From positions 1 to 37,403 of the IMG/VR virus record IMGVR_UViG_2529293140_000005: 37,403 nt of DNA, one strand, 5' to 3'. Below the pieces are notes generated by a model. It was not told where the DNA came from. It was given only the letters and a program-made list of their open reading frames with translations, and did not search any database. The position numbers were made by a program, and so were the translations under genes. The stretch is from a virus. Lineage: Duplodnaviria > Heunggongvirae > Uroviricota > Caudoviricetes. Below are positions 1,145-37,403 of the stretch, in pieces (within the stretch, counting starts at the first letter, position 1; each line of letters opens with the position of its first letter).

Positions 1145-2036
1145 CATATCTAATCTAGCCGAAGCCAGAGAGGCCAGAAGGCTCCAGCAACCGCATCAAA
1201 GCAGCGGTAAGGGGTATGCCTTGCTGCACCGTAAAATTATGGATGTGCCGTTTTACAAGGACGCAGAAGCAGCGCATCTGTGGGTTCACTTAATCCTCAA
1301 AGCAAAGCATACGCCTGAGTATGTAATGACTAACGCAGGAGAAATTCTGGTAGGCAGAGGGAAGCTACTTGGCGGTAGAAACTCTCTGGCGTTTGAAACA
1401 GGACTCAAACCAGATCGCGTTCAGTACCTGCTTAGAAAGTTCAAAAAACTCGGCATGATTGACTGGGTTTCACACGGTAAATTCTCAGTTTTCTCGGTAG
1501 AGAAATATGACGATTATCAGTCAAATTTTGTACCAGCAGATTACCAGCAAATTACCACCTCAAAGCCAGAAATACCAATGCCTGCAAGCAATACTGTACC
1601 AGCAGATTACCAGCAAATTACCACAGATAAAGAATATAATAATATTATCTCTAATACTGACGTATTAGAGAGTACCGCAGCAGACAAAAAGTCTGACAAG
1701 AAAAAACCTTCCGTCAGCTGTCAGGATGTTGTCGATGCTTACCACGAAATCCTTCCTGAAGCGCCAAGAATCCGCGCACTGAATGACAAGCGTAAAAACC
1801 AGATCCGAACGTTCTGGCGCAAAGCCGGAGTGATAACCCGCCAGCTTGACGGACATGGGTTCACGATGCAGGACTGGAGAAATTATTTGAGCTACGTAGG
1901 CGAAAATTGCCGATGGATGTTCGAAGAGCGCCCAAACCATCAACGCGGAACCGTCTGGCACAAAAAGGGATTTGATTTCCTGCTTAACGATAATACCTAC
2001 CTGAAAGTTCGTGAGGGTGAACACGATGACCGATAA
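1137..2036 (+). CDS. Replication initiation protein (lambda O-position analogue)
   Basis: 299 aa directly upstream of the helicase gene. Contains internal iteron repeats and an adjacent AT-rich tract, the same arrangement as lambda ori inside O. Confidence 0.65.
1530..1624 (+). repeat. Putative origin iterons: two exact 29-bp direct repeats GTACCAGCAGATTACCAGCAAATTACCAC (1530..1558, 1596..1624)
   Basis: Exact duplicate seen in sequence (encodes [10 protein letters not shown] twice). Each copy contains ATTACCA sub-repeats. Followed by the AT-rich tract 1625..1660. Confidence 0.6.
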
Positions 2037-3462
2037 TTTTTATGCGCCGCCCCATAGCATCGAGGCAGAGCAGGCGGTGATTGGTGGATTGCTTCTGGAT
2101 GATGACAGCAGTGAGCGCGTCCAGAAAGTTCTGGCGATGCTGAAGCCCGATTCATTTTACAGCCGACCACACAAAATCCTTTTCGAAGAAATAACCAGAA
2201 TGCACCGGGAGCAAAAGCCAGTAGATGGCCTGACGCTTTTCGATGAACTGGAGCGTAAATCGTTAACGGTGTCTGTTGGCGGTTTTGCTTATATCGCTGA
2301 GATCGCAAAGAACACGCCAAGCGCAGCAAACATCGTTGCTTATGCAATGCAGGTTCGCGAAACCGCAATGGAACGCTACGCCATCAACCGCATGACTGAA
2401 GCGACGGAATTGCTCTATTCCCGCAACGGAATGACCGCAACACAGAAGTACGAAGCTATTCAGTCGATTTTCACGCAACTGACAGACCATGCAAAAACCG
2501 GATCGCGTCGCGGCCTTCGCTCATTTGGTGAGGTCATGGAAGACTGGGTTAGCGACCTTGAGAAGCGATTTGACCCGTCAGGCGAACAACGAGGAATGAG
2601 CACAGGGATCCCATCGCTGGACAGGATGCTGTCACCGAAAGGTCTGGTGAAAGGCTCTCTGTTTGTCATTGGCGCTCGCCCTAAGATGGGGAAAACGACG
2701 CTATACAGCCAGATGGCAATCAACTGCGCAGTGCATGAGAAAAAGCCCGCTCTGATGTTCAGCCTTGAAATGCCAGGTGACCAGATACTGGAAAAACTGG
2801 TAGGACAGAAGTCAGGTGTTAACCCGAATATTTTTTACCTTCCGGCGACAAATGACGCTGATGACGGCTATCAGGGTGATTACGATGGTGACTTCAACAG
2901 GGCGATCGAAACAGCAAATCGCTTGAGTGAAATCGACCTGCTTTACATCGACGACACGCCGGGATTATCTCTGGCTCAAATCGTCAGTGAAAGCCGTCGA
3001 ATCAAGCGAGAAAAAGGATGTGTTGGCATGATTCTGGTCGATTACCTGACACTAATGACCGCTGAGAAGGCCGATCGCAACGACCTTGCTTACGGCATGA
3101 TCACCAAAGGACTGAAGAACCTTGCCAAAGAGCTTGATTGCGTTGTTGTGCTTCTGACACAGCTTAACCGCGCATTGGAAAGCCGAACCAATAAACGCCC
3201 ATTACCAAGTGACTCGCGCGATACAGGGCAGATTGAACAGGATTGCGATTATTGGGTGGGGATCCATCGTGAAGGTGCTTTTGATGACAGTGTTCCACCT
3301 GGTGAAACCGAACTAATCCTTCGTCTCAATCGTCATGGCAATACCGGCACGGTGTATTGCATTCAGGCAAATGGCGCTATTTATGACACAGACCAACAGT
3401 CCGCTGAAATGCGCCGCCGTGAACGCGAGGAACCGCAATCCAAGAAGAAAGGAGGATTCTGA
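2026..3462 (+). CDS. DnaB-family replicative DNA helicase
   Basis: N-terminal SIEAEQAVIGGLLLD DnaB signature, Walker A GARPKMGKTT, Walker B ILVDYL. Start is ambiguous (2011 or 2026). Confidence 0.85.
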   Translation: MTDNFYAPPHSIEAEQAVIGGLLLDDDSSERVQKVLAMLKPDSFYSRPHKILFEEITRMHREQKPVDGLTLFDELERKSLTVSVGGFAYIAEIAKNTPSAANIVAYAMQVRETAMERYAINRMTEATELLYSRNGMTATQKYEAIQSIFTQLTDHAKTGSRRGLRSFGEVMEDWVSDLEKRFDPSGEQRGMSTGIPSLDRMLSPKGLVKGSLFVIGARPKMGKTTLYSQMAINCAVHEKKPALMFSLEMPGDQILEKLVGQKSGVNPNIFYLPATNDADDGYQGDYDGDFNRAIETANRLSEIDLLYIDDTPGLSLAQIVSESRRIKREKGCVGMILVDYLTLMTAEKADRNDLAYGMITKGLKNLAKELDCVVVLLTQLNRALESRTNKRPLPSDSRDTGQIEQDCDYWVGIHREGAFDDSVPPGETELILRLNRHGNTGTVYCIQANGAIYDTDQQSAEMRRREREEPQSKKKGGF

Positions 3463-3538: not shown

Positions 3539-3979
3539 ATGAAAAAACTAACCTTTGAAATTCGATCTCCAGCACATCAGCAAAACGCTATTCACGCAGT
3601 ACAGCAAATCCTTCCAGACCCAACCAAACCAATCGTAGTAACCATTCAGGAACGCAACCGCAGCTTAGACCAAAACAGGAAGCTATGGGCCTGCTTAGGT
3701 GACGTCTCTCGTCAGGTTGAATGGCATGGTCGCTGGCTGGATGCAGAAAGCTGGAAGTGTGTGTTTACCGCAGCATTAAAGCAGCAGGACGTTGTTCCTA
3801 ACCTTGCCGGGAATGGCTTTGTGGTAATAGGCCAGTCAACCAGCAGGATGCGTGTAAGAGAATTTGCGGAGCTATTAGAGCTTATACAGGCATTCGGTAC
3901 AGAGCGTGGCGTTAAGTGGTCAGACGAAGCGCGACTAGCTCTCGAATGGAAAGCGCGATGGGGAGATCGGGCTGCATGA
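3539..3979 (+). CDS. ninB: NinB recombination protein
   Basis: MKKLTFEIRSPAHQQNAIHAVQQILPDPTKPIVVTIQERNRSLDQNRKLW... matches lambda NinB as recalled. ATG at 3539 with a G-rich RBS. Confidence 0.85.
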   Translation: MKKLTFEIRSPAHQQNAIHAVQQILPDPTKPIVVTIQERNRSLDQNRKLWACLGDVSRQVEWHGRWLDAESWKCVFTAALKQQDVVPNLAGNGFVVIGQSTSRMRVREFAELLELIQAFGTERGVKWSDEARLALEWKARWGDRAA

Positions 3980-4503
3980 CTATCAAATCAAATACGCCAG
4001 CACACGACAAGGACTGCTGGCAAACGCCGCTTTGGCTTTTTGATGCACTGGATATTGAGTTTGGATTCTGGCTGGATTCGGCAGCGAGCGACAAAAATGC
4101 TCTGTGCGCTCACTGGTTAACTGAGGCCGACGACGCGCTAAATTCTGAGTGGATAAGCCACGGTGCAATCTGGAATAACCCACCGTACAGCAATATCAGG
4201 CCGTGGGTGGAAAAAGCCGCTGAGCAGTGCATACAACAGCGACAGACGGTAGTTATGCTTGTGCCAGAGGATATGTCAGTCGGATGGTTCAGCAAGGCTC
4301 TGGAGAGTGTCGACGAAGTTCGCATTATCACTGATGGGCGGATTAATTTTATCGAACCATCGACAGGGCTGGAGAAGAAGGGAAACAGCAAAGGCTCCAT
4401 GCTGCTGATTTGGCGACCGTTCATCAGTCCTCGACGAATGTTTACTACCGTATCCAAAGCGGCATTGATGGCGATCGGGCAGGGCGTCAGGAGGGCGGCA
4501 TGA
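3976..4503 (+). CDS. Phage DNA N6-adenine methyltransferase
   Basis: NPPY motif (WNNPPYSN); about 175 aa; nin-region position. Confidence 0.7.
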
Positions 4504-4682: not shown

Positions 4683-4858
4683 TTGACCAAAATCGAAGTT
4701 ACGAACAAGAAAGCGTCGAGCGAGCTTTAACGTGCGCTAACTGCGGTCAGAAGCTGCATGTGCTGGAAGTTCACGTGTGTGAGCGTTGTATATATGAATG
4801 CTTAAATATGGTGGAACATAATGAGAAATATAAGCAACATAGACGAATTAAGAAATAA
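4679..4858 (+). CDS. ninF: NinF with a replaced C-terminus (disrupted by the downstream insertion)
   Basis: GTG start overlapping the ninE stop. (M)[34 protein letters not shown] matches lambda NinF; the sequence diverges after that point, at about nt 4785. Confidence 0.55.
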
Positions 4859-5327
4859 ATTATCATATGATGATGTTTTAGGTGTACTTAGATGGAAAGT
4901 GTCTCCTTCTAATAATGTTAAGGTTGGCAGTGTTGCTGGTTACATTAGGAGTGATGGTTATAGGATGTTAACTATCGATGGTGTAATTACTTATGCTCAC
5001 CACGTTATATGGATGATAAATAATGGTGAGATTCCATTAGGGTATAAAATTGATCATATAAATGGAGTAAGGTCAGATAATAGGCTATCTAATCTTCGAT
5101 TGGTTACACACCAACAGAATGCACAGAACCAAAAGAGAAAAATAACCAATTCGTCAGGAGTGACTGGAGTATATTTCAATAAAGAGAGATGTAAGTGGAT
5201 TGCGAATATATGCGTAGATGGGCGCACCAAATATCTTGGAATATTTGCTAGCATCATTGACGCTATTGCAGAAAGGAAGAGGGCAGAAAAAGAACTGGGT
5301 TTTCATGAAAACCATGGCAGACCATAA
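4821..5327 (+). CDS. HNH homing endonuclease with an AP2-like DNA-binding domain
   Basis: HNH motif region YKIDHINGVRSDNRLSNLRLVTHQQNAQN. C-terminal GVTGVYFNKERCKWIANICVDGRTKYLGIFASIIDAIAERKRAE resembles an AP2 domain. AT-rich relative to its flanks. Confidence 0.75.
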   Translation: MRNISNIDELRNKLSYDDVLGVLRWKVSPSNNVKVGSVAGYIRSDGYRMLTIDGVITYAHHVIWMINNGEIPLGYKIDHINGVRSDNRLSNLRLVTHQQNAQNQKRKITNSSGVTGVYFNKERCKWIANICVDGRTKYLGIFASIIDAIAERKRAEKELGFHENHGRP

Positions 5328-5388
5328 CTGCGCAGAACTGATGAGCGATCCGAATAGCTCGATGCACGAGGAAGAAGACGATGGCTAA
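5328..5388 (+). other. Displaced 3' remnant of ninF
   Basis: Reading 5329..5388 gives [19 protein letters not shown]-stop, the lambda NinF C-terminus as recalled. It is out of frame with, and separated from, the ninF 5' part. Confidence 0.5.
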
Positions 5389-5992
5389 ACCAGCGCGAAG
5401 ACGATGTAAAAACGATGAATGTCGGGAATGGTTTCACCCTGCATTCGCCAATCAGTGGTGGTGCTCTCCAGAGTGTGGAACCAGGATAGCACTCGAACGA
5501 CGAAGCAAAGAACGCGAAAAAGCGGAAAAGGCAGCAGAGAAGAAACGACGACGAGAGGAGCAGAAACAGAAAGATAAACTTAAGATTCGAAAACTCGCCT
5601 TAAAGCCCCGCAGTTACTGGATTAAACAAGCCCAACAAGCCGTAAACGCCTTCATCAGAGAAAGAGACCGCGACTTACCATGTATCTCGTGCGGAACGCT
5701 CACGTCTGCTCAGTGGGATGCCGGACATTACCGGACAACTGCTGCGGCACCTCAACTCCGATTTGATGAACGCAATATTCACAAGCAATGCGTGGTGTGC
5801 AACCAGCACAAAAGCGGAAATCTCGTTCCGTATCGCGTCGAACTGATTAACCGCATCGGGCAGGAAGCAGTAGACGAAATCGAATCAAACCATAACCGCC
5901 ATCGCTGGACTGTCGAAGAGTGCAGGACCATCAAGGCGGAGTATCAACAGAAACTTAAAAAACTGCGAAACAGCAGAAGTGAGGCTGCATGA
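5381..5992 (+). CDS. ninG: NinG (Rap) recombination protein
   Basis: [41 protein letters not shown]... matches lambda NinG as recalled. Confidence 0.85.
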
Positions 5993-6660
5993 ATATCTAC
6001 GAAAGAATTGATGGCAGCAAATACCGAAATATTTGGGTAGTTGGCGATCTGCACGGATGCTACACGAACCTGATGAACAAACTGGATACGATTGGATTCG
6101 ACAACAAAAAAGACCTGCTTATCTCGGTGGGCGATTTGGTTGATCGTGGTGCAGAGAACGTTGAATGCCTGGAATTAATCACATTCCCCTGGTTCAGAGC
6201 TGTACGTGGAAACCATGAGCAAATGATGATTGATGGCTTATCAGAGCGTGGAAACGTTAATCACTGGCTGCTTAATGGCGGTGGCTGGTTCTTCAATCTC
6301 GATTACGACAAAGAGATTCTGGCTAAAGCTCTTGCCCATAAAGCAGAAGAACTTCCGTTAATCATCGAACTGGTGAGCAAAGGTAAAAAATATGTCATTT
6401 GCCACGCCGATTATCCTTGTGATGAATACGAGTTTGGAAAGCCAGTTGATCATCAGCAGGTAATCTGGAACCGCGAACGAATCGGCAACTCACAAGACGG
6501 GATCGTGAAAGAAATCAAAGGCGCGGACACGTTCATCTTTGGTCATACGCCAGCAGTGAAACCACTCAAATTTGCCAACCAGATGTATATCGATACCGGC
6601 GCAGTGTTCTGCGGAAACCTCACATTGATTCAGGTACAGGGAGAAGGCGCGTGGGCATAA
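5989..6660 (+). CDS. ninI: Ser/Thr protein phosphatase (lambda PPase)
   Basis: Calcineurin-like metallophosphatase motifs GDLHG, GDLVDRG, GNHE; near-identical to lambda NinI as recalled. Confidence 0.85.
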
Positions 6661-11819: not shown

Positions 11820-13235
11820 ATGAACGAAGATGATATCGCAATCGGCAGTTGCTCGCCGGAGCTGATCACGCTCCTGGACAGCGATGACATTCAGCCGGGT
11901 ATGTCGGCTGGCTATCAGACCTGCAAAACGATTTACCTCTTCCACCCGTTGGGAGGGAAAATGGTAGATCGCCCGATCAAGATGGCGATGAACGAGTCGC
12001 GCACGGTTCACATTTCGCAGGCGTATGGCATTGAGCAGCGTCTCCGCGATGCATTTGAGCGGGAGTGGAAAGCACTGGGCGCCGATAAGCACATCGCTAA
12101 TGCGGCGCGCATCTCTCGCATTTACGGTGTTTCGGCGATCGCAATGCTGGTTGATAACCAGGAGCCGTCCTCTGCGGTGGACTACCGCACGCTGTATAAG
12201 CACAACGTGACATTCAACATTCTCGACCCGCTGAACACTGCCGGAAGCATCGTCCTGAACCAGGATCCGAACGCGCAGGACTTTCAGAAGGTCGACGGGA
12301 TCAGAGTGGCGGGCAAGCCGTATCACAAATCCCGCTGTGTTGTGCAACAGAACGAGGACCCGATTTATCTGGCCTATAACTCTGCGGCCTTTGGCTTTAC
12401 CGGTCGCAGCGTTTACCAGCGCGCTCTGTTCCCGCTGAAATCCTTCATCCAGACCATGCGCACCGATGACATGGTTTCCGTGAAGGGTGGCTTGCTGGTA
12501 ACGAAGATTCAGGGACCGAGCTCAGTCGTCAACAACATGATGCAAAAGCTCAGCGGCATCAAACGAATGATGCTGAAGCGAGGGAAGACAGGCGAGGTCC
12601 TGCAGATCGGCGCAAATGACAGCATCGAATCCATCGACCTGAGCAACCTGGAAAAGCCGCTCGACTCCTCCCGGAATCACATTCTGGAGAATATCGCTGC
12701 GGCAGCTGACATGCCGGCTATCATTCTGAACTCGGAAACATTCGCCCAGGGCTTCGGCGAGGGGACGGAAGACGCTCGATCTGTTGCAGTCTACATCGAC
12801 AACATCCGCGAGTGGCTTGAGCCGCTGTATGACTATTTCATCCGTATTTGCCAGTATCGCGCCTGGAGCATTGAGTTTTTCAATTCTCTGCGTGCTGACT
12901 TTCCGGAGCTGAAAAACACCTACAGCCTGTATTTCTCCTCATGGATTAACAACTTCGAATATCGCTGGCCGTCATCCCTGAAAGAGCCGGAAAGCGAAAA
13001 AGTGAAGGTCGACGAAATCCGCTTTAAGGCCATCGTCAGCATGCTGGAAGTCCTTCTCCCGCAGGTCAACACGGATGATGAGAACCGCGCGCTTCTTATC
13101 GAGTGGGCGCAGACCAACGCGAACGCTAACGAAAGCCTGTTCCCGCAGCGACTTGATCTCGATATCGACTCGTTAAAGGCTAACCGGCCTGAACAGCCAC
13201 GGGATGAAGAGCCCGGCGGCGGGATGATGCTATGA
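11820..13235 (+). CDS. Portal protein
   Basis: 471 aa immediately after the terminase; size and position. Confidence 0.7.
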   Translation: MNEDDIAIGSCSPELITLLDSDDIQPGMSAGYQTCKTIYLFHPLGGKMVDRPIKMAMNESRTVHISQAYGIEQRLRDAFEREWKALGADKHIANAARISRIYGVSAIAMLVDNQEPSSAVDYRTLYKHNVTFNILDPLNTAGSIVLNQDPNAQDFQKVDGIRVAGKPYHKSRCVVQQNEDPIYLAYNSAAFGFTGRSVYQRALFPLKSFIQTMRTDDMVSVKGGLLVTKIQGPSSVVNNMMQKLSGIKRMMLKRGKTGEVLQIGANDSIESIDLSNLEKPLDSSRNHILENIAAAADMPAIILNSETFAQGFGEGTEDARSVAVYIDNIREWLEPLYDYFIRICQYRAWSIEFFNSLRADFPELKNTYSLYFSSWINNFEYRWPSSLKEPESEKVKVDEIRFKAIVSMLEVLLPQVNTDDENRALLIEWAQTNANANESLFPQRLDLDIDSLKANRPEQPRDEEPGGGMML

Positions 13236-14053
13236 AGACTTTCACGCGCACCGTACGCGAGGCGGTGAAGTTCTTTCTGCGCAATGGCTACACCTCGCGG
13301 CAGGAGCTGGAGCAATGGCAGGCCATTATCCGGCAAGCGGCCGAAAGCGAAACTGATGACGACTACATGAGCATGGTGTCCGATCGGTTGCGTAAGACCT
13401 ATGACCTGCAGGTGAGCAAGGCTGGAGCGCTGGAGCGCCACAAGGGGCTTTCACGCTTCACGCTGAACTACATGGAGCCGAAGTTACGCAGCGAGCTGGA
13501 TCGCCGCATCCTGGCCAGCGCTGACCTGATAAAGCTGAATCGTAAGAAAGCCATCGACACTACTCTGTCGCGGTTTAGCGGATGGGCCAGCAGCATTCCC
13601 TCAGCAGATAGCATTGCGCGGACCGGCATTCAGGGAACGATGCGGGAGACGGCGGCGCACATTCAGAAGGCCGCCGAGAAGGTGGACTATGAAGCGCGCC
13701 GCGTGATGATTGACCAGAACCATAAGCTGATCGCCAATATCGACAACATCATCGCGACGGGCAACAACGCGATTGCTGCCGAGTGGCATAGCCACTGGCG
13801 CCAGCCAGGGTACGACTACCGGGAAGATCACAAGGAGAGGGACAAGCTGATCTATCTCATCCGCGGGAACTGGGCGCAGAAAAATGGCTATGTCAAAGCT
13901 GGCCCTGCCGGCTATCTCGACGAAATTACGCAGCCTGGCGAAGAGGTTTTCTGTCGGTGCTACGTCACCTATCTGTACAACCTCCGCAGCATTCCCGAGG
14001 ACATGCTGACCCAGAAGGGCCGCAAGTTCCTGGAGTCCATGAAAGCAGCATAG
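13232..14053 (+). CDS. Head morphogenesis protein (Mu F / SPP1 gp7-like)
   Basis: 273 aa after the portal; family assignment from memory of that family. Confidence 0.55.
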   Translation: MKTFTRTVREAVKFFLRNGYTSRQELEQWQAIIRQAAESETDDDYMSMVSDRLRKTYDLQVSKAGALERHKGLSRFTLNYMEPKLRSELDRRILASADLIKLNRKKAIDTTLSRFSGWASSIPSADSIARTGIQGTMRETAAHIQKAAEKVDYEARRVMIDQNHKLIANIDNIIATGNNAIAAEWHSHWRQPGYDYREDHKERDKLIYLIRGNWAQKNGYVKAGPAGYLDEITQPGEEVFCRCYVTYLYNLRSIPEDMLTQKGRKFLESMKAA

Positions 14054-14065
14054 GAGCATTAAAAC

Positions 14066-15679
14066 GTGGCTATTTTTGGCAGCGGGATAATGTTCCGTCA
14101 GGGGAAGTTCGTCTTCCTGATCCAGCGCTCGGATGATGGCACATGGTGCCAGCCGGGCGGGACGATAGAGCCGGGAGAGTTAGCCATAGACGCCGCACGG
14201 CGCGAGGTGCTGGAGGAAACAGGCTATCAGTACGATGGCCCGCTGACGCCGCACAGCGTACATGGTGACTACCTGACCTACCGCGCCGACGTGCCGGAGC
14301 AATTCGAAGCGAAGATAAACGACGAATCGCTGGCCGCCGGATGGTTCCATATTGACGATCTGCCAAAGCCGCTTCATCAGCCATTCGCTGAAATGCTGGC
14401 GCAGCAGGCGCTCAACGAAACCGACGTGGCCGCGCTCATCGCTGACGGAACGCTCAGCAGCCCGCAATATTTTTACAACATGTGGATGTTCGCCATCCGG
14501 GTGACCGGAACAGGGGTTGCCTGGCGATCTGCAGATCAGGAGATGACGTTCCGTAACCCGGACGACTATCTCACCCCTGAATTTCTCCAGCGGGTAGCTG
14601 GCGTACCACTTATCTGGCTTCACCCCGAAAAAAGAACACTTGATAGCGACGAGTTCTCAAAGCGCGTTATTGGCACCCTGACAAATGCCTGGGTTGCCGA
14701 TAAGGGCGAAGTGTGGGCCGTTGCGCGTGTGTACGACGCCGAAGCTGCTGAAATTATGGCAACAAGGCAATTAAGCACCTCGCCAACTGTGAAGTTCTCA
14801 GAGGTTGCTCAATCAATCATTGTCGACGGTCAGCCTCTACTGGTGGAGCCATCCCCCGAGCTGCTCGACCACGTTGCAATTTGTGAACAGGGCGTGTGGG
14901 ACAAGCTCCTTGCCCCTACCGGTGTTAAATCTGATTCCATTCCTGAAGAGGCTGAAAAGATGGACGAGGAAAAAATCGTAGCGCTGATTAATAAGGCGAT
15001 CGATGCGCGTTTGGCTAAGGCCGACGAAGAGAAGGAAGCGAAAGCCAAGGCTGACGCCGAAGAGGCCGCCAAGAAAGAAAAGGCTGACGCAGAAGACAAA
15101 GAAGCGGAAGAGGCGAAAGCTAAAGCCGACGCGGAAGAGAAAGCCGCGAAGGAAAAAGCTGATGCTGAAGCCAAAGAAAAGGCGGATGCCGAAGAGGCTG
15201 AGAAAATGGCAAAAGAAAAAGCCGACTCTCAAATCCTCCAGGAAATTGCTGAGCTTCGCTCCCGCATTCCTACCGAACTGAGCGACGAAGAGCGCAACGA
15301 AGTTGCAGAAGCGCAGGTGAAAGCCGATAGCGTCTTCTCCAGCTTTGGCAAACGCGCCCCGATCCCGCTGTCCGGTGAAAAACCGATGGCGTATCGCCGC
15401 CGTCTGATGATTCAACTGCAGGAGCATTCTCCGGACTACAAAGCCGTCGATCTCTCTGCCATCGCTGATTCTCAACTGCTGAGCACTGCCGAAAAGCATA
15501 TCTACGCTGATGCGCAGAAGGCGGCCAGCCTGTCAGTTGGTCCCGGTATGCTGCGCGAGATTAAGCGCGCCGATGCAACCGGTCGCCAGATCAGCACCTT
15601 TGAAGGCGATCCCGCCGTCACCTGGGCGCCGTTCCAGTCTGGCAAGCGTCAGGTCACCAGTTTTAACAACCAGGCTTAA
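14066..15679 (+). CDS. Head scaffold-position protein with an N-terminal Nudix hydrolase domain and a central K/E/A-rich coiled-coil repeat region
   Basis: Canonical Nudix box [24 protein letters not shown] (G-x5-E-x7-REUxEE-xGU) at about residues 30-52. Residues ~310-380 are KADAEE/KEKADAE repeats. GTG start with AGGAG RBS. Confidence 0.7.
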
Positions 15680-15694: not shown

Positions 15695-16555
15695 ATGGCT
15701 AATTTATCTCTTAACCCGATGGCGACCACGAATGCCGCTGGTTCCTTCGGTGTGCAGTCTGATGGCTTCATTCAGGGCGTTGCTCTGGATGATCCGGCAA
15801 ATCGCTTTAACCTGGCGTCCGGCACTGTCGCCGCCACCGAAACCAAACCGCTGTGGGGTGGCCTGCCGGTTGCCGAGTTGCTGCCCGGCGTGAACTCCAG
15901 TCCTCGCGGGTCGACTATTCGTCGCGCTGTGTCACTGGCTGAACTCGAAGGCTTCACCGTCTTCAACCAGGCCCACAACGGCCTTACCACTCCGCAATCA
16001 CCGGTTCCGCTGTATGCGTCCGGCATGAGCGTTTCATTCTACCGCCTTGGATCCAACATGCGCGTTCCGCTGAAAGCTTCAGCGCAGGTGGTAGCGCTCG
16101 GAACCGCTGGAGCATCGGTGAAAACGCCGCTGGCGTGGGACTTCGTCAATAACCAGGTGACCACCGCAGCCGCGGCGGCTTTTGCCGGTGCTGACATTGA
16201 CACGACCGCTGTTACCTACTCGAACGGCGTGGCCACCGCCACCACTGCCTCTGCACATGGTCTGACTGCAGGCCAGTACGTGAAGATCAGCGGAGTAGCT
16301 CCGACTGCCTATAACGGCACCGTCGTTGTGCTGAGCGTGCCGAGTACGACAACCTTCACCTATGCGCCTGCCAGCGCGCCGGGCGGCTCCGCGACCACGC
16401 AGGGCACTATCGGCGCTGTTGCTCAGGCAGACATCACCCTGCCAGTGAAAGTCATCTCCATCGAGAGTGGGAACTCTAAAACTGTCAGCTATGACAGCGC
16501 TACGGGCTTCCTTACCTGGAACAACACCGACAGCTGCGCGCTGGTCTTACTTTAA
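15695..16555 (+). CDS. Head accessory/decoration-type protein with a C-terminal Ig-like domain
   Basis: 286 aa between the scaffold-position gene and the capsid gene. C-terminal domain shares a motif with the sheath and a baseplate protein. Confidence 0.45.
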   Translation: MANLSLNPMATTNAAGSFGVQSDGFIQGVALDDPANRFNLASGTVAATETKPLWGGLPVAELLPGVNSSPRGSTIRRAVSLAELEGFTVFNQAHNGLTTPQSPVPLYASGMSVSFYRLGSNMRVPLKASAQVVALGTAGASVKTPLAWDFVNNQVTTAAAAAFAGADIDTTAVTYSNGVATATTASAHGLTAGQYVKISGVAPTAYNGTVVVLSVPSTTTFTYAPASAPGGSATTQGTIGAVAQADITLPVKVISIESGNSKTVSYDSATGFLTWNNTDSCALVLL

Positions 16556-16568
16556 TCGGGAGCTTTAA

Positions 16569-17600
16569 ATGGCTGCAATTACCCCCAGCTACACCATCGT
16601 CAACCCGTCGTATATTGCGCCGGAGTTGATCATTGGTTACCAGCAGGCGTCCGGTGCGTTCGAAACCATCGCCAGCGGTAACCCGCAGGTCCGCCTTGGC
16701 GTAGGCGACCAGTACGTTTATATGCGCCGCCTGGATATTCGTACCCAGGTAACCTCCAGCCAGTCCGGCAACGCCAACCAGCTGCCGAGCGTGGCGCTCG
16801 AGGCGCGCATGATCTCCACTCCAACCTACCTGTTCCGCTGCCGTGGTATCTACGATCACCACGACACCGCGGCGGCCGGTAACTGGAACGTGGCTCTGCC
16901 AGAAGCTCAGCGTCTCGGCATGCGTCAGGGCATCTTCCAGCAGTTGCGTTCTGCGCTGCTGTACGGCATGAACCCGGCAGGCGGCGAAGGTCTGCTGAAC
17001 ACCGCAGGCGCGACCACCGAAACCCTGCCGCCGGACAGCAACAGCAACACCACTGTGCTGACCTACGACCATGGACAGATGGCTGTCTATCTGCTGGGCC
17101 ATGTACAGGCCGCGCTGACCCGCACCATGCAACTGGGTCGCCAGCAGCGTGTTGTTATCCTCGGTCCGCAGCGAGTGCTGGGCGCGATGGAGATTCAGCA
17201 GATCGTTCAGCTGACATCTTATCAGCGTCCTGGCGGCGGTACTGATACCGTCGGCGGCACCGTGAAAGAGGTTCTCCGTGGCGCGAATGTTCAGGTTGAC
17301 TGGGTGTACGACGACACGCTGATCGGCGCCGGTGCCGGCGGTACTGACGCGGTGGTTATCACCGTCCCGGAAGTGGAAGTGCCGATGGCCAACTCCACCG
17401 TGAACACCAACGAATTCGCCAAACTGAGCCCGTCTCTGGCGGCGAACGCCCTGATGTTCACCGACATGGCGGCACCGATGGAAATCCCGACGCCAATCCC
17501 CGGGGGCGCTATCGACGTGCTGTCAGAAATGCGCTCTACGGCTGGCTGGGCAGTCCGTCCGGAAGCTATCACCATCCTGTCGATGAAATACAGCGACTAA
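16569..17600 (+). CDS. Major capsid protein
   Basis: 343 aa, strong RBS, followed by a strong terminator; position in the head module. Confidence 0.6.
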   Translation: MAAITPSYTIVNPSYIAPELIIGYQQASGAFETIASGNPQVRLGVGDQYVYMRRLDIRTQVTSSQSGNANQLPSVALEARMISTPTYLFRCRGIYDHHDTAAAGNWNVALPEAQRLGMRQGIFQQLRSALLYGMNPAGGEGLLNTAGATTETLPPDSNSNTTVLTYDHGQMAVYLLGHVQAALTRTMQLGRQQRVVILGPQRVLGAMEIQQIVQLTSYQRPGGGTDTVGGTVKEVLRGANVQVDWVYDDTLIGAGAGGTDAVVITVPEVEVPMANSTVNTNEFAKLSPSLAANALMFTDMAAPMEIPTPIPGGAIDVLSEMRSTAGWAVRPEAITILSMKYSD

Positions 17601-34998: not shown

Positions 34999-36195
34999 TT
35001 ACTCGCCTGCGCGACCATCAATGTAATCAGCCCACCACTGCATCATTTCTCTGCGCTTATCGAGATACTGAGCATGGTTGTAAATCCCGCGCACAGAACC
35101 GCCGTTGGCATGTGCCAGTTGCACTTCAATAGCATCAGCAGGCCATTCGTTCTCGTTCATAATCGTGCTGAATTCATGCCTGAATCCGTGACCGCTTTCC
35201 AGACCCTCATAGCCGATTTGTTTGATCACAAGTAGCACCGCGTTCTCGCAGATTGGCTTCTTCTTATCGTTGCGCCCGGCAAAAACAAACTCTGATACTG
35301 GTTTGGTGATTGAGCTTAGCGTAGTGAGAAGTTCAACCACCTGGTCTGACATCGGTACTACATGGATCCTTCGTCCTTTCATCACACTGGCGTCGATGGT
35401 GATAATCCTGTTTTCAAAATCGACGTTCTTCCATAGCATGGAACGAAGCTCTTTCGTTCTTAGGGCAGTGTAGCGTAAAATCTTGGTGGCAATGAGCGAT
35501 ACGATACTTCCTGAAAATGTTGCCAGTGCTTTGTTGAATGCCGGGATCTGGTCTGCAGGAAGAAACGGGAAGTTCTTCTTGCGGTATCCCTTCATGGCGT
35601 CAGCAAGGTCAGGTGCCGGGTTATATTTAGCCCTACCGGTGACAATAGCGTAACGGAAAACCTCGCCGCATCTTCTGCGTGCTTTGTTGGCTCGCTCCAT
35701 TGCACCGCGATCTTCAAATCTGCGGATTACTTCCAGCAGTTGCATCGGCTCAATATCCTGAATCTCAAGACCGCCGATGATGGGTAAAATGTCGTCATCA
35801 AACATTTTTGCAAGTTCAGTTGCATAGCCTACAGACCAGACTTGCTTCTTGTGCTCGTACCATTCCTTGTAAATCGCACTAAAGGAATTGTTGTTAGACG
35901 AAGCCTTTTTCGCCTTTACCGGATCGATACCAACCGAGATGTCTTTCCTCGCAGTCCATGCTTTATCCCTTGCCTCCTGCAAAGTCATAAGCGGATATTT
36001 TCCGACAGTCAGGATTTTCTCCTTACCGTCAATCTTGTAGCGAAGCTGCCATACCTTTTTCCCGGATACAGGGACATAAAGGTACAGGCCATTACCATCG
36101 AGAAGGCGATATGGTTTTTCTTTCGGCTTTGCTGCTTCAATCTGCTTAACGGTGAGCATGGGTAAAAATCCGGTGGGTAAAATTATTTTATCCAC
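34999..36195 (-). CDS. intS: Tyrosine site-specific integrase (P4-type)
   Basis: 398 aa; C-terminal catalytic motifs (HGFRHEF..., final Y region); adjacent to a tRNA 3' end. Symbol assigned from the argW/yfdC context as recalled for E. coli. Confidence 0.85.
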   Translation of the reverse strand: MDKIILPTGFLPMLTVKQIEAAKPKEKPYRLLDGNGLYLYVPVSGKKVWQLRYKIDGKEKILTVGKYPLMTLQEARDKAWTARKDISVGIDPVKAKKASSNNNSFSAIYKEWYEHKKQVWSVGYATELAKMFDDDILPIIGGLEIQDIEPMQLLEVIRRFEDRGAMERANKARRRCGEVFRYAIVTGRAKYNPAPDLADAMKGYRKKNFPFLPADQIPAFNKALATFSGSIVSLIATKILRYTALRTKELRSMLWKNVDFENRIITIDASVMKGRRIHVVPMSDQVVELLTTLSSITKPVSEFVFAGRNDKKKPICENAVLLVIKQIGYEGLESGHGFRHEFSTIMNENEWPADAIEVQLAHANGGSVRGIYNHAQYLDKRREMMQWWADYIDGRAGE

Positions 36196-36320: not shown

Positions 36321-36395
36321 TGGTGTCCCCTGCAGGAATCGAACCTGCAATTAGCCCTTAGGAGGGGCTCGTTATATCCATTTAACTAAGAGGAC
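36321..36395 (-). tRNA. argW: tRNA-Arg (anticodon CCU)
   Basis: Reverse complement reads GTCCTCTTAGTTAAATGGATATAACGAGCCCCTCCTAAGGGCTAATTGCAGGTTCGATTCCTGCAGGGGACACCA: cloverleaf with GGTTCGATTCC T-loop, CCT anticodon, 3' CCA. Confidence 0.85.
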
Positions 36396-36470: not shown

Positions 36471-37403
36471 TTATGCCGGGTTTTTATAATTTTTCTTAAT
36501 GTTTTCCGCACGTTCTGCTTTTTGGCGTGCTTCTGCTTTACGCTTATTGCTCATGTCGTTACGAATCTGTGCATGACTCATTAACGCGAAGATAAAGGTG
36601 CCGCCGCAGATGTTCCCCGCTAAAGTAGGTAGTGCGAAGGGCCAGATGAAATCGCTCCAGTGCAGCGTACCGTTAAACACCAGATAGAGGATTTCAACAG
36701 AACCGACCACGATATGGGTGGTGTCACCCAGGGCAATAAGCCAGGTCATCAATATAATCACCACAATCTTTGCCGCACCCGCTGCAGGAAACATCCAAAC
36801 CATAGTGGCGATCAGCCAGCCGGAAATGATCGCGTTGGCAAACATCTCGCTGGGGGTGTTCTTCATCACATCCATGCCGATTTTGACAAATGCATCGCGA
36901 GTTTCTTCATTGAAGATAGGCATATATTCAAATGCCCACGCCGCAATACCTGTCCCGAGAATATTACCCAGCAGCACGACGCCCCATAACCGTATAAGTA
37001 AGCCGACGTTGCTCATTGTCGGTTTTTGCATGACGGGTAGTACCGCAGTCACGGTATTTTCGGTAAATAATTGCTGGCGGGCCATAATGACGATAATAAA
37101 ACCAAAGGTATAACCGAGATTCTCCAGCAAGAAGCTGCCCGGCACACCTTCCAGTTCGACTTGAAATATCCCTTTTGCCAGTAACGAAGCGCCCATCGAC
37201 AGACCCGCCGCAATGGCTGACCACAGTAGCGCCATTGCGTCGCGTTCCAGCTCTTTTTCACCATCCTGGCGGATATGCTCATGAATTGCCATCGCCCGGG
37301 AGGGGAGTCGGTCTTCATCTATTTCTATTTTTTTGCCGCGCTCTTTTTCTTCGCTCTCAACTTCAATTTCGTCGCTGTGTTGATCAATTTTGTCGTTGTC
37401 CAT
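36471..37403 (-). CDS. yfdC: Host inner-membrane protein, formate/nitrite transporter family (YfdC-like)
   Basis: 310 aa with multiple hydrophobic helices; ATG at the window edge. E. coli argW context recalled from memory. Confidence 0.65.
   Translation of the reverse strand: MDNDKIDQHSDEIEVESEEKERGKKIEIDEDRLPSRAMAIHEHIRQDGEKELERDAMALLWSAIAAGLSMGASLLAKGIFQVELEGVPGSFLLENLGYTFGFIIVIMARQQLFTENTVTAVLPVMQKPTMSNVGLLIRLWGVVLLGNILGTGIAAWAFEYMPIFNEETRDAFVKIGMDVMKNTPSEMFANAIISGWLIATMVWMFPAAGAAKIVVIILMTWLIALGDTTHIVVGSVEILYLVFNGTLHWSDFIWPFALPTLAGNICGGTFIFALMSHAQIRNDMSNKRKAEARQKAERAENIKKNYKNPA

Follow-up and report, generated by a model that had tools for sequence, protein, structure and literature searches.

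The window analysed here, a 37,403-nucleotide stretch of a Caudoviricetes genome (IMG/VR record IMGVR_UViG_2529293140_000005, positions 1 to 37,403), is an integrated prophage copy with a host junction at its right end, and its phage is a temperate Klebsiella myophage of the Chronis/RothD lineage ('Felixviridae'). Between its head-morphogenesis and capsid genes, a location given in a preliminary description of the sequence and confirmed by profile matches of the neighbours, lies a plus-strand gene for a 537-amino acid (aa) protein (14066-15679; Table 1), whose open reading frame (ORF) and GTG start also stand as first described. The product had been read as a Nudix hydrolase domain fused to a head scaffold protein; a scaffold is indeed present at residues 299-537, but the partner is not a scaffold alone, as the middle domain, left unnamed at the time, is predicted to be a DUF2213/COG3566 prohead protease. 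The ribosome-binding sequence AGGAG at 14052-14056 adjoins the stop of the upstream head-morphogenesis gene, and gp4 of Klebsiella phage vB_Kpn_Chronis is annotated with a start identical to GTG 14066 (database record).

The Nudix domain is recognised by Pfam NUDIX (PF00293) over residues 9-112 (E 2.9e-16; score 60.1 bits, cut-off 21.1), a match well outside chance expectation, and its box, G32-TIEPG-E38-LAIDAAR-R46EVLEETGY54, fits the consensus GX5EX7REUXEEXGU perfectly, in keeping with the textbook box first noted in the initial ~120 residues. An AlphaFold2 (AF2) model of the full-length protein has a mean predicted local distance difference test score (pLDDT) of 88, rising above 95 across residues 11-120, and Foldseek pairs this model with Nudix hydrolases of solved structure at target-normalised TM-scores of 0.6-0.67; the fold is the alpha/beta/alpha type of Nudix proteins. 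Conservation was read from an alignment of 139 homologues (A3) that are mutually no more than about 50% identical: G32, E38, R46, E47, E50 and E51 of the box, and beyond it E87 and H104, each show conservation of 90% or more. The dN/dS (nonsynonymous to synonymous substitution ratio) of the Nudix part is 0.035 against Yersinia and 0.12 against Pantoea, values that resemble those of the protease and C-terminal domains and are approximate with dS saturated. By these sequence comparisons, the Nudix domain is under purifying selection with its catalytic residues intact, and it looks like an active pyrophosphohydrolase. The preliminary description had also considered that a standard architecture with a non-catalytic Nudix-like fold would undo its proposal; the architecture does turn out to be standard, as described below, but the fold retains its catalytic motif.

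Residues 118-298 are, from sequence and modelling, a predicted serine protease of the assemblin/T4 gp21 fold. Residues 159-276 match DUF2213 over the Pfam threshold; Foldseek with the full-length AF2 model returned Nudix matches only, and the beta-barrel protease fold was identified through a separate model of residues 118-298. PHROGs 530, 2229, 12864 and 3778 ('head maturation protease') match the protease region either here or in gp26 of phage BcepB1A and gp14 of Bcep781. The predicted catalytic triad is His186, Ser237 and His269: His186 and Ser237 are invariant in the 139 homologues, in seven phage orthologues (alignment A2) and in 20 protease-domain sequences that include BcepB1A and Bcep781 (A5), and His269 is at least 90% conserved in the first of these alignments and invariant in the other two. 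The order His-Ser-His is that of the herpesvirus assemblin triad. Sequence identity to T4 gp21 and to herpesvirus assemblin is 9-18%, and the window protease differs from both in being fused to its own scaffold and to a Nudix domain. The protease is predicted to mature the prohead, presumably by cutting scaffold or capsid protein.

The C-terminal part, residues 299-537, is assigned to the scaffold by sequence and analogy, and its capsid-binding role is presumed. The K/E/A-rich coiled-coil repeat of the preliminary description is real; it spans approximately residues 300-390 and is encoded by imperfect tandem repeats with periods of 75 and 33 at 15025-15178 (Tandem Repeats Finder, TRF), and the AF2 model has a long helix at 301-336 and low pLDDT at 339-370. 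Sub-threshold matches of this low-complexity coil to an NCBIfam 'TolA' model and to Pfam CDC45, HAM1, CCDC47 and Presenilin were rejected. In the C-terminal domain, the motifs ADAQxKADSV, YRRR and IYADA are conserved in both the seven-phage and the 139-homologue alignments. Indirect support for the scaffold role comes from Pseudomonas phage Pa193 gp24 (PDB 9B40_G), which the DUF2213 profile matches at E 6.8e-10 and in which a helix-turn-helix sits C-terminal to the DUF2213 domain; in mature virions this helix-turn-helix attaches to the inner capsid surface at the five-fold vertices, and gp24 was detected in mature virions by liquid chromatography-mass spectrometry (PMC11456595). The DUF2213 domain of Pa193 gp24, homologous to that of the window protein, is N-terminal and leads into a helical scaffold, but Pa193 gp24 (PDB 9B40) is without a Nudix domain, and its protease domain went unremarked by its authors.

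The scaffold is probably also made alone, and in excess, from an internal start at Met299, because the corresponding alignment column holds Met in 121 and Val in 16 of the 139 homologues (137 together) within an otherwise variable linker, a GAGG lies upstream, and the annotated start of BcepB1A gp25, a scaffold protein nested in frame within gp26, falls exactly on Met299 in the alignment. An internal GTG start codon reads as valine, and GAGG is found at the equivalent place in the Yersinia and Pantoea orthologues. We found no annotation of a nested scaffold start in the Klebsiella, Yersinia or Pantoea phage records. Such an arrangement has well-known counterparts in lambda C/Nu3, Mu I/Z and P2 gpO, where protease and scaffold share one frame and the scaffold is also made from an internal start; in all three, the shared C-terminal scaffold part brings the protease into the prohead. 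Lambda C is a ClpP/S49-type protease and not of the assemblin fold, and we know of no N-terminal enzymatic cargo domain in lambda C, Mu I or P2 gpO. We also note a Met in 64 of the 139 homologues in the residue-116 column, at the Nudix/protease boundary, which is where Nudix-less orthologues start; in some lineages this could be a second internal start giving a Nudix-free protease isoform. In the window, codon 14411-14413 is CTC (Leu116), and a second start of this kind is inapplicable to its protein.

The Nudix fusion had been thought unusual for a capsid assembly protein, and comparison with orthologues had been proposed to see whether the Nudix module is an insertion; a broad comparison does not support the claim of unusualness. 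An exhaustive HMMER search of 1.84 billion cluster representatives at 50% identity gave 566 clusters at E<=1e-30, the best 150 of which we inspected by a regular-expression count and targeted Pfam scans. The core box G-x5-[ED]-x7-R[ED]xx[EQD][ED] is present in 133 of these 150, and three more have a Pfam NUDIX match that keeps RExxEE with a one- or two-residue indel in the box, so that at least 136 of the best 150 of the 566 clusters have the Nudix-protease-scaffold architecture. PHROG 6216 models the entire architecture and matches the window protein end to end (E 6.6e-246), and the same domain order recurs in BcepB1A gp26. The Nudix-less proteins retain remnants of deletion (P0251 and P0268 keep a 'PLHPG' tail, and P0194 shows an internal deletion), and their closest relatives bear a Nudix domain; the sequence comparisons therefore identify the fused state as ancestral, with the Nudix domain lost repeatedly. 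In E. coli phage Rac-SA53, the Nudix-less orthologue begins exactly at the domain boundary.

Among close relatives, the gene has 99.4% DNA identity to vB_Kpn_Chronis gp4 ('putative NUDIX hydrolase') and 98.8% to its counterparts in RothC and RothD, the latter being the type of the proposed temperate family Felixviridae (PMC12629751). Fused orthologues are found in five Yersinia phages (83% aa identity), Pantoea phage PdC23 (74%) and a Shewanella phage (42%). Clusters at 90% identity from Klebsiella genomes (the best 120 listed) all have proteins of 537-541 aa; a precomputed column gives both Pfam domains for 119 of these 120, with P0074 listing NUDIX only, and one such cluster alone is found on 514 contigs.

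The Nudix domain of the window belongs to a subfamily (36-42% identity, with shared LNDEH and LPxPLH motifs) that is attached to more than one kind of head protein. It is found at the N-terminus of the protease-scaffold in the window gene, the Shewanella phage and BcepB1A gp26, and at the C-terminus of Phage_portal_3 portals in Bcep781, Bcep43, Bcep1 and BcepNY3 (phrog_15528); the Bcep781 portal is of the same family as the window portal. Both attachment points, the C-terminus of the portal and the N-terminus of the protease-scaffold, lie on the inner side of the capsid. Some relatives of the fusion protein carry a further domain ahead of the Nudix domain: P0231 (L010:896-3469) has an Alt/VIP2-type ADP-ribosyltransferase (ART), in a gene that lies directly after a 47%-identical orthologue of the window head-morphogenesis gene (L010), and P0239 (L011:4716-7301) has a PBECR1 nuclease domain. 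Both ART and PBECR domains are classed as virion-delivered effectors by Iyer et al. Other relatives (among P0133 and P0191) have a DUF5710 or ribonucleotide reductase (RNR)-like segment in this position; the RNR-like protein totals 1567 aa and could be a gene-calling merge. About 40 of the 133 Nudix-bearing homologues (for example P0132, P0146, P0144, P0151 and the Shewanella L007:4857-4990) have short conserved leader peptides before the Nudix domain, such as 'MPLEAGSSxAVxSxNIAxExKAGKxPKQAEAIAY' and 'MPLTxKGEEILxxLxxxYG...'; the window protein is without a leader.

We lean, by a small measure, towards a reading in which the Nudix domain is cargo, packaged in the head and injected with the genome to act on a host nucleoside diphosphate linked to another moiety X (NDP-X). 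The comparative evidence favours a location inside proheads by virtue of the fusion, because covalent attachment to head-interior proteins recurs, at the protease N-terminus and the portal C-terminus, and because relatives bear recognised injected-effector domains at the equivalent N-terminal position. The natural losses further suggest that the Nudix domain is accessory and dispensable for assembly, yet it is strongly conserved where present. The C-terminal scaffold domain would co-assemble with free scaffold and capsid protein, and a few full-length copies would thereby bring both protease and Nudix domain into the procapsid interior. At maturation the protease would cut the polyprotein, and the helical scaffold pieces would exit or be degraded, leaving the folded Nudix domain (~13 kDa) trapped with the DNA; it would then be expelled with the genome into the next host, as are T4 Alt and the T4 internal proteins, and would hydrolyse an NDP-X compound there as soon as infection begins. 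Its substrate would most likely be ADP-ribose (ADPr) or a molecule derived from NAD+ (free ADPr, an immune signal built on ADPr, or an NAD cap), or else a dinucleoside polyphosphate; we place the ADPr and NAD+ group first in view of the ART that neighbours the Nudix domain in relatives and of what Iyer et al. conclude. Every element of this scheme, from entry into proheads through cleavage, retention and ejection to the substrate, is inferred.

Covalent linkage of an effector domain to a capsid-interior protein from the late head genes places the window protein, by its architecture, beside head-packaged, injected effectors of the T4 Alt/IP type and the MuF- or portal-fused effectors and polyvalent proteins of Iyer et al. 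2017. T4 Alt and the internal proteins IPI-III enter the prohead core, undergo cutting by the prohead protease, and leave the capsid with the DNA. The cargo logic proposed for the window protein is the same, and P0231 even has its Alt-type ART beside a Nudix domain, but T4 cargo consists of separate proteins with a short capsid-targeting sequence, whereas the window cargo would be a covalent part of the protease-scaffold and its delivery is predicted.

Several observations weigh against packaging and injection, or against any particular substrate. Many subfamily members are standalone proteins of 135-210 aa without an evident capsid-targeting element, and these sequences show that the Nudix domain can work unfused; about 14 of the best 150 clusters are without it while keeping deletion remnants, so that ~10% of lineages have lost the domain. 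A literature search found no virion proteomics or experiments on any Nudix-bearing head protein, and Pa193 gp24, which is seen in virions, has no Nudix domain. Depending on where the polyprotein is cleaved, the Nudix domain could instead be degraded or leave with the scaffold. As to the substrate, the nearest solved structures span diadenosine tetraphosphate (Ap4A) hydrolase, NUDX1, NudC, MutT1 and RppH and do not allow it to be inferred. T4 NudE gives little guidance either, with a 34-aa BLASTP stretch, 23% overall identity and membership of a different PHROG.

Other routes to the substrate were no more specific. Sequence and fold neighbours in the PDB are scattered over the Ap4A, NUDX1, NudC, MutT1, RppH and ADPRase families, and an NCBIfam scan gave only sub-threshold generic matches with no pointer to a substrate. 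Specificity motifs downstream of the box were not used, as the relevant positions vary across the family. The window Nudix domain matches phrog_1198 at 1.1e-17 and phrog_1185, the PHROG of T4 NudE, at 9.5e-8; we judged support for the T4 NudE clade too weak for borrowing its substrates, which a database record gives as FAD, ApnA, ADP-ribose and NADH.

The fusion might instead ensure nothing beyond co-expression with head proteins, with the Nudix domain acting in the cytoplasm of the producer cell late in infection and never delivered by virions; one form of this idea has it degrade immune signals of the ADPr type, or NAD+ breakdown products that are toxic, once defences sense the capsid, portal or prohead protease. 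We consider this unlikely, although it has points in its favour: unfused homologues of the same subfamily are numerous in late operons, the full-length protein is cytoplasmic before assembly, and a late counter-measure is conceivable given that, according to a review, CBASS (cyclic oligonucleotide-based antiphage signalling) and Toll/interleukin-1 receptor (TIR) systems can be triggered by prohead protease and by capsid proteins. Operon membership, however, suffices for co-expression with no need of a covalent link, a link that arose on at least two head-interior proteins and in a position shared with ART and PBECR, which are virion-delivered effectors according to Iyer et al.; furthermore, the cyclic oligonucleotides of CBASS would not be substrates for an enzyme class that cleaves pyrophosphate bonds. 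A generic house-cleaning role, in which an enzyme of MutT, Ap4A or ADP-ribose type safeguards the nucleotide pool or removes alarmones and sits on a head protein by accident, would be compatible with Ap4A hydrolases and MutT1/MTH1 among the nearest solved structures and with the activities recorded for T4 NudE. We think it improbable: late expression is ill-timed for sanitising replication precursors, the fusion is kept in at least 136 of the best 150 divergent clusters, and the Nudix domain both recurs on the portal and co-occurs with conflict-type effector domains.

Because catalytic box residues E38, R46, E47, E50 and E51 are conserved in at least 90% of homologues, we give still less credence to a non-catalytic pro-domain or nucleotide-sensing regulator that holds the protease inactive or aids assembly. 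The Nudix domain does lie directly N-terminal to the protease, and AF2 places both in one confident model, but natural Nudix-less orthologues are otherwise intact, and Nudix domains of this type are also found on portals and as standalone proteins. The remaining alternative, a sequencing or assembly artefact joining two genes, is negligible. It could draw on the Logan assembly L012, in which the gene is split into ORFs of 159 aa and 181+ aa by a 1-nucleotide deletion in a GGGG run (L012:5001-6019, ~window 14513), but this split falls inside the protease domain and not at a domain boundary, and is probably a homopolymer error or a pseudogene. The artefact is refuted because three sequenced phage isolates have the ORF intact, as do complete Klebsiella chromosomes and hundreds of contigs and of divergent clusters, and the fusion is genuine. 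Head cargo accounts better than any of these alternatives for a covalent link to head-interior proteins that recurs.

A more specific form of the cargo reading treats the protease-scaffold N-terminus as a modular 'cargo dock' by which myophages, temperate and virulent alike, would bring small enzymes (a Nudix domain, an Alt-type ART or a PBECR RNase) into the capsid, with the injected Nudix domain destroying a pyrophosphate-containing, NAD+-derived immune signal or ADPr species within seconds of entry, for example the Thoeris-type glycocyclic ADPr (gcADPR) or histidine-linked ADPr (His-ADPR). We offer it only tentatively and doubt that it holds in full; if it did, this would be the first enzyme shown to be delivered by virions for degrading a nucleotide immune signal. 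Packaging and injection as such would extend virion-delivered effectors from modifiers of protein and nucleic acid (T4 Alt, IPI, N4 vRNAP) to a small-molecule hydrolase, and an enzyme acting before any phage gene expression would answer NAD+/ADPr-based immunity pre-emptively. Because the fusion protein is very common in Klebsiella prophages and is spread over hundreds of divergent lineages, an activity of this kind would be met widely in hosts of clinical relevance; RothD, a cultivable Klebsiella phage that lysogenises, would be a ready experimental system.

The architecture class and the idea of packaging and injection are already published, and the protein itself is in GenBank and PHROGs. 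Iyer, Burroughs, Anantharaman and Aravind described Nudix fusions to MuF, portal and capsid-processing serine peptidase, and independently predicted head packaging and injection to counter NAD+/ADPr-based immunity (Viruses 14:1977, 2022); their treatment comprises one sentence and a figure, with the Nudix domain placed in a 'T4 NudE-like' clade (Viruses 14:1977). That assignment is supported only weakly here, and the nested scaffold, the loss pattern and experimental data have no place in their account. The closest named system is gp26 of Burkholderia phage BcepB1A ('head maturation protease, COG3566'), which has the same Nudix-DUF2213 protease-scaffold order at the same site after the head-morphogenesis gene; it differs in its ~24% overall identity to the window protein, its PHROG (3778 versus 6216), an extra N-terminal peptide of ~40 aa (phrog_2423 motif) and its origin in a virulent soil phage, and its record gives no role for the Nudix domain. 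Our analysis adds the fold-level identification of DUF2213 as a protease with triad residues, the near-universal internal start, a count in which the fusion is the default state and its losses are secondary, ART and PBECR as co-cargo, and the link to the Pa193 scaffold structure.

Public names for the gene are inconsistent or misleading, and we suggest that its annotation give a Nudix-prohead protease-scaffold polyprotein and, nested within it, the scaffold gene. Orthologues are named 'glycosyl transferase' in the Yersinia phages (OM046621 etc.); that of Rac-SA53 (KU052037) is called 'TolA protein' with a note 'nudix', though Nudix-less, and those of RothC and RothD (PP934563/4) 'hypothetical protein'.

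Table 1. Features of the Nudix-protease-scaffold gene, its neighbours and the right end of the window, numbered from the first letter of the window
Feature	Position	Strand	Basis or remark
Full-length Nudix, prohead protease and scaffold gene	14066..15679	+	537 aa, GTG start, ORF listing
Shine-Dalgarno AGGAG	14052..14056	+	9 nt before GTG start; read from sequence
Nudix hydrolase domain, residues 1-117	14066..14416	+	Pfam NUDIX and AF2/Foldseek
Nudix box G32-x5-E38-x7-R46-E47-V-L-E50-E51-T-G53-Y54, metal-binding catalytic helix	14159..14227	+	Sequence
Prohead maturation serine protease domain (predicted), residues 118-298, DUF2213/COG3566, assemblin/T4 gp21 fold	14417..14959	+	
His186 codon (CAC), predicted catalytic histidine	14621..14623	+	Invariant in alignments
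Ser237 codon (AGC), LSTSP motif, predicted nucleophile	14774..14776	+	Invariant in alignments
His269 codon (CAC), LDHxA motif, predicted third triad residue	14870..14872	+	Conserved in alignments
Internal Shine-Dalgarno-like GAGG	14948..14951	+	8 nt before ATG 14960
Predicted nested in-frame scaffold gene from Met299, 239 aa	14960..15679	+	Conserved start column
K/E/A-rich helical, partly disordered spacer, residues 299-400	14960..15265	+	TRF, AF2
Conserved C-terminal scaffold domain, residues 401-537, presumed capsid-binding	15266..15676	+	pLDDT >90
Portal gene (Phage_portal_3)	11820..13235	+	Profile match
Head-morphogenesis gene (MuF/SPP1 gp7-like)	13232..14053	+	phrog_324, E 4.7e-29
Major capsid protein gene	16569..17600	+	phrog_6671 and phrog_264; Pantoea phage PdC23 counterpart annotated major capsid protein
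Tyrosine integrase	34999-36195	-	Right end of window
tRNA-Arg(CCT)	36321-36395	-	Right end of window
Host formate/nitrite-transporter gene	36471-37403	-	Right end of window

The fusion gene lies in the order TerS (phrog_370), TerL, portal, head-morphogenesis, Nudix fusion gene, a gene for a 286-aa protein, and major capsid protein. Minus-strand ORFs that overlap the fusion gene (e.g. 14837-15499) lie within the repeat-rich coil, are unsupported, and were rejected as spurious. The 286-aa protein (window 15695-16555) matches phrog_6268 end to end, yet is longer than the profile (286 versus 211 aa), and its residues 165-242 match segments of tail-fibre and virion-structural PHROGs; these matches suggest a decoration protein with an inserted domain, and the name 'endosialidase' for this protein in Pantoea phage PdC23 looks doubtful.

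In the early/middle region, a replication/nin region of lambdoid style adjoins a structural module like that of PB1/E217. Early/middle genes at 3916-4503, 4821-5327, 5381-5992 and 5989-6660 encode a Dam-type N6-adenine methyltransferase, an HNH endonuclease, NinG and a calcineurin-like metallophosphoesterase, respectively, alongside a DnaB-type helicase at 2011-3462. The prophage may use a different att site from that of RothD, because RothD integration is reported inside a hypothetical ORF (KlebPhaCol paper) and the junction in the window lies at the tRNA-Arg(CCT) and transporter genes.

Standalone members of the Nudix subfamily are seen in Ralstonia phage PQ43W, where the gene follows two named 'hypothetical protein' and 'virion structural protein', and in E217/PB1-like contigs carrying P0313, where it lies directly after E217_gp31_N and E217_Gp32 domain genes, which we take to encode sheath and tube. 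Standalone Nudix proteins (L013:8001-8555, L014, L015; L006:4989-5519) are ~184 aa long with a ~60-aa C-terminal extension and are encoded by the last gene of the late operon. The extension of the PQ43W protein matches phrog_2423, a short motif that is also present at the N-terminus of BcepB1A gp26.

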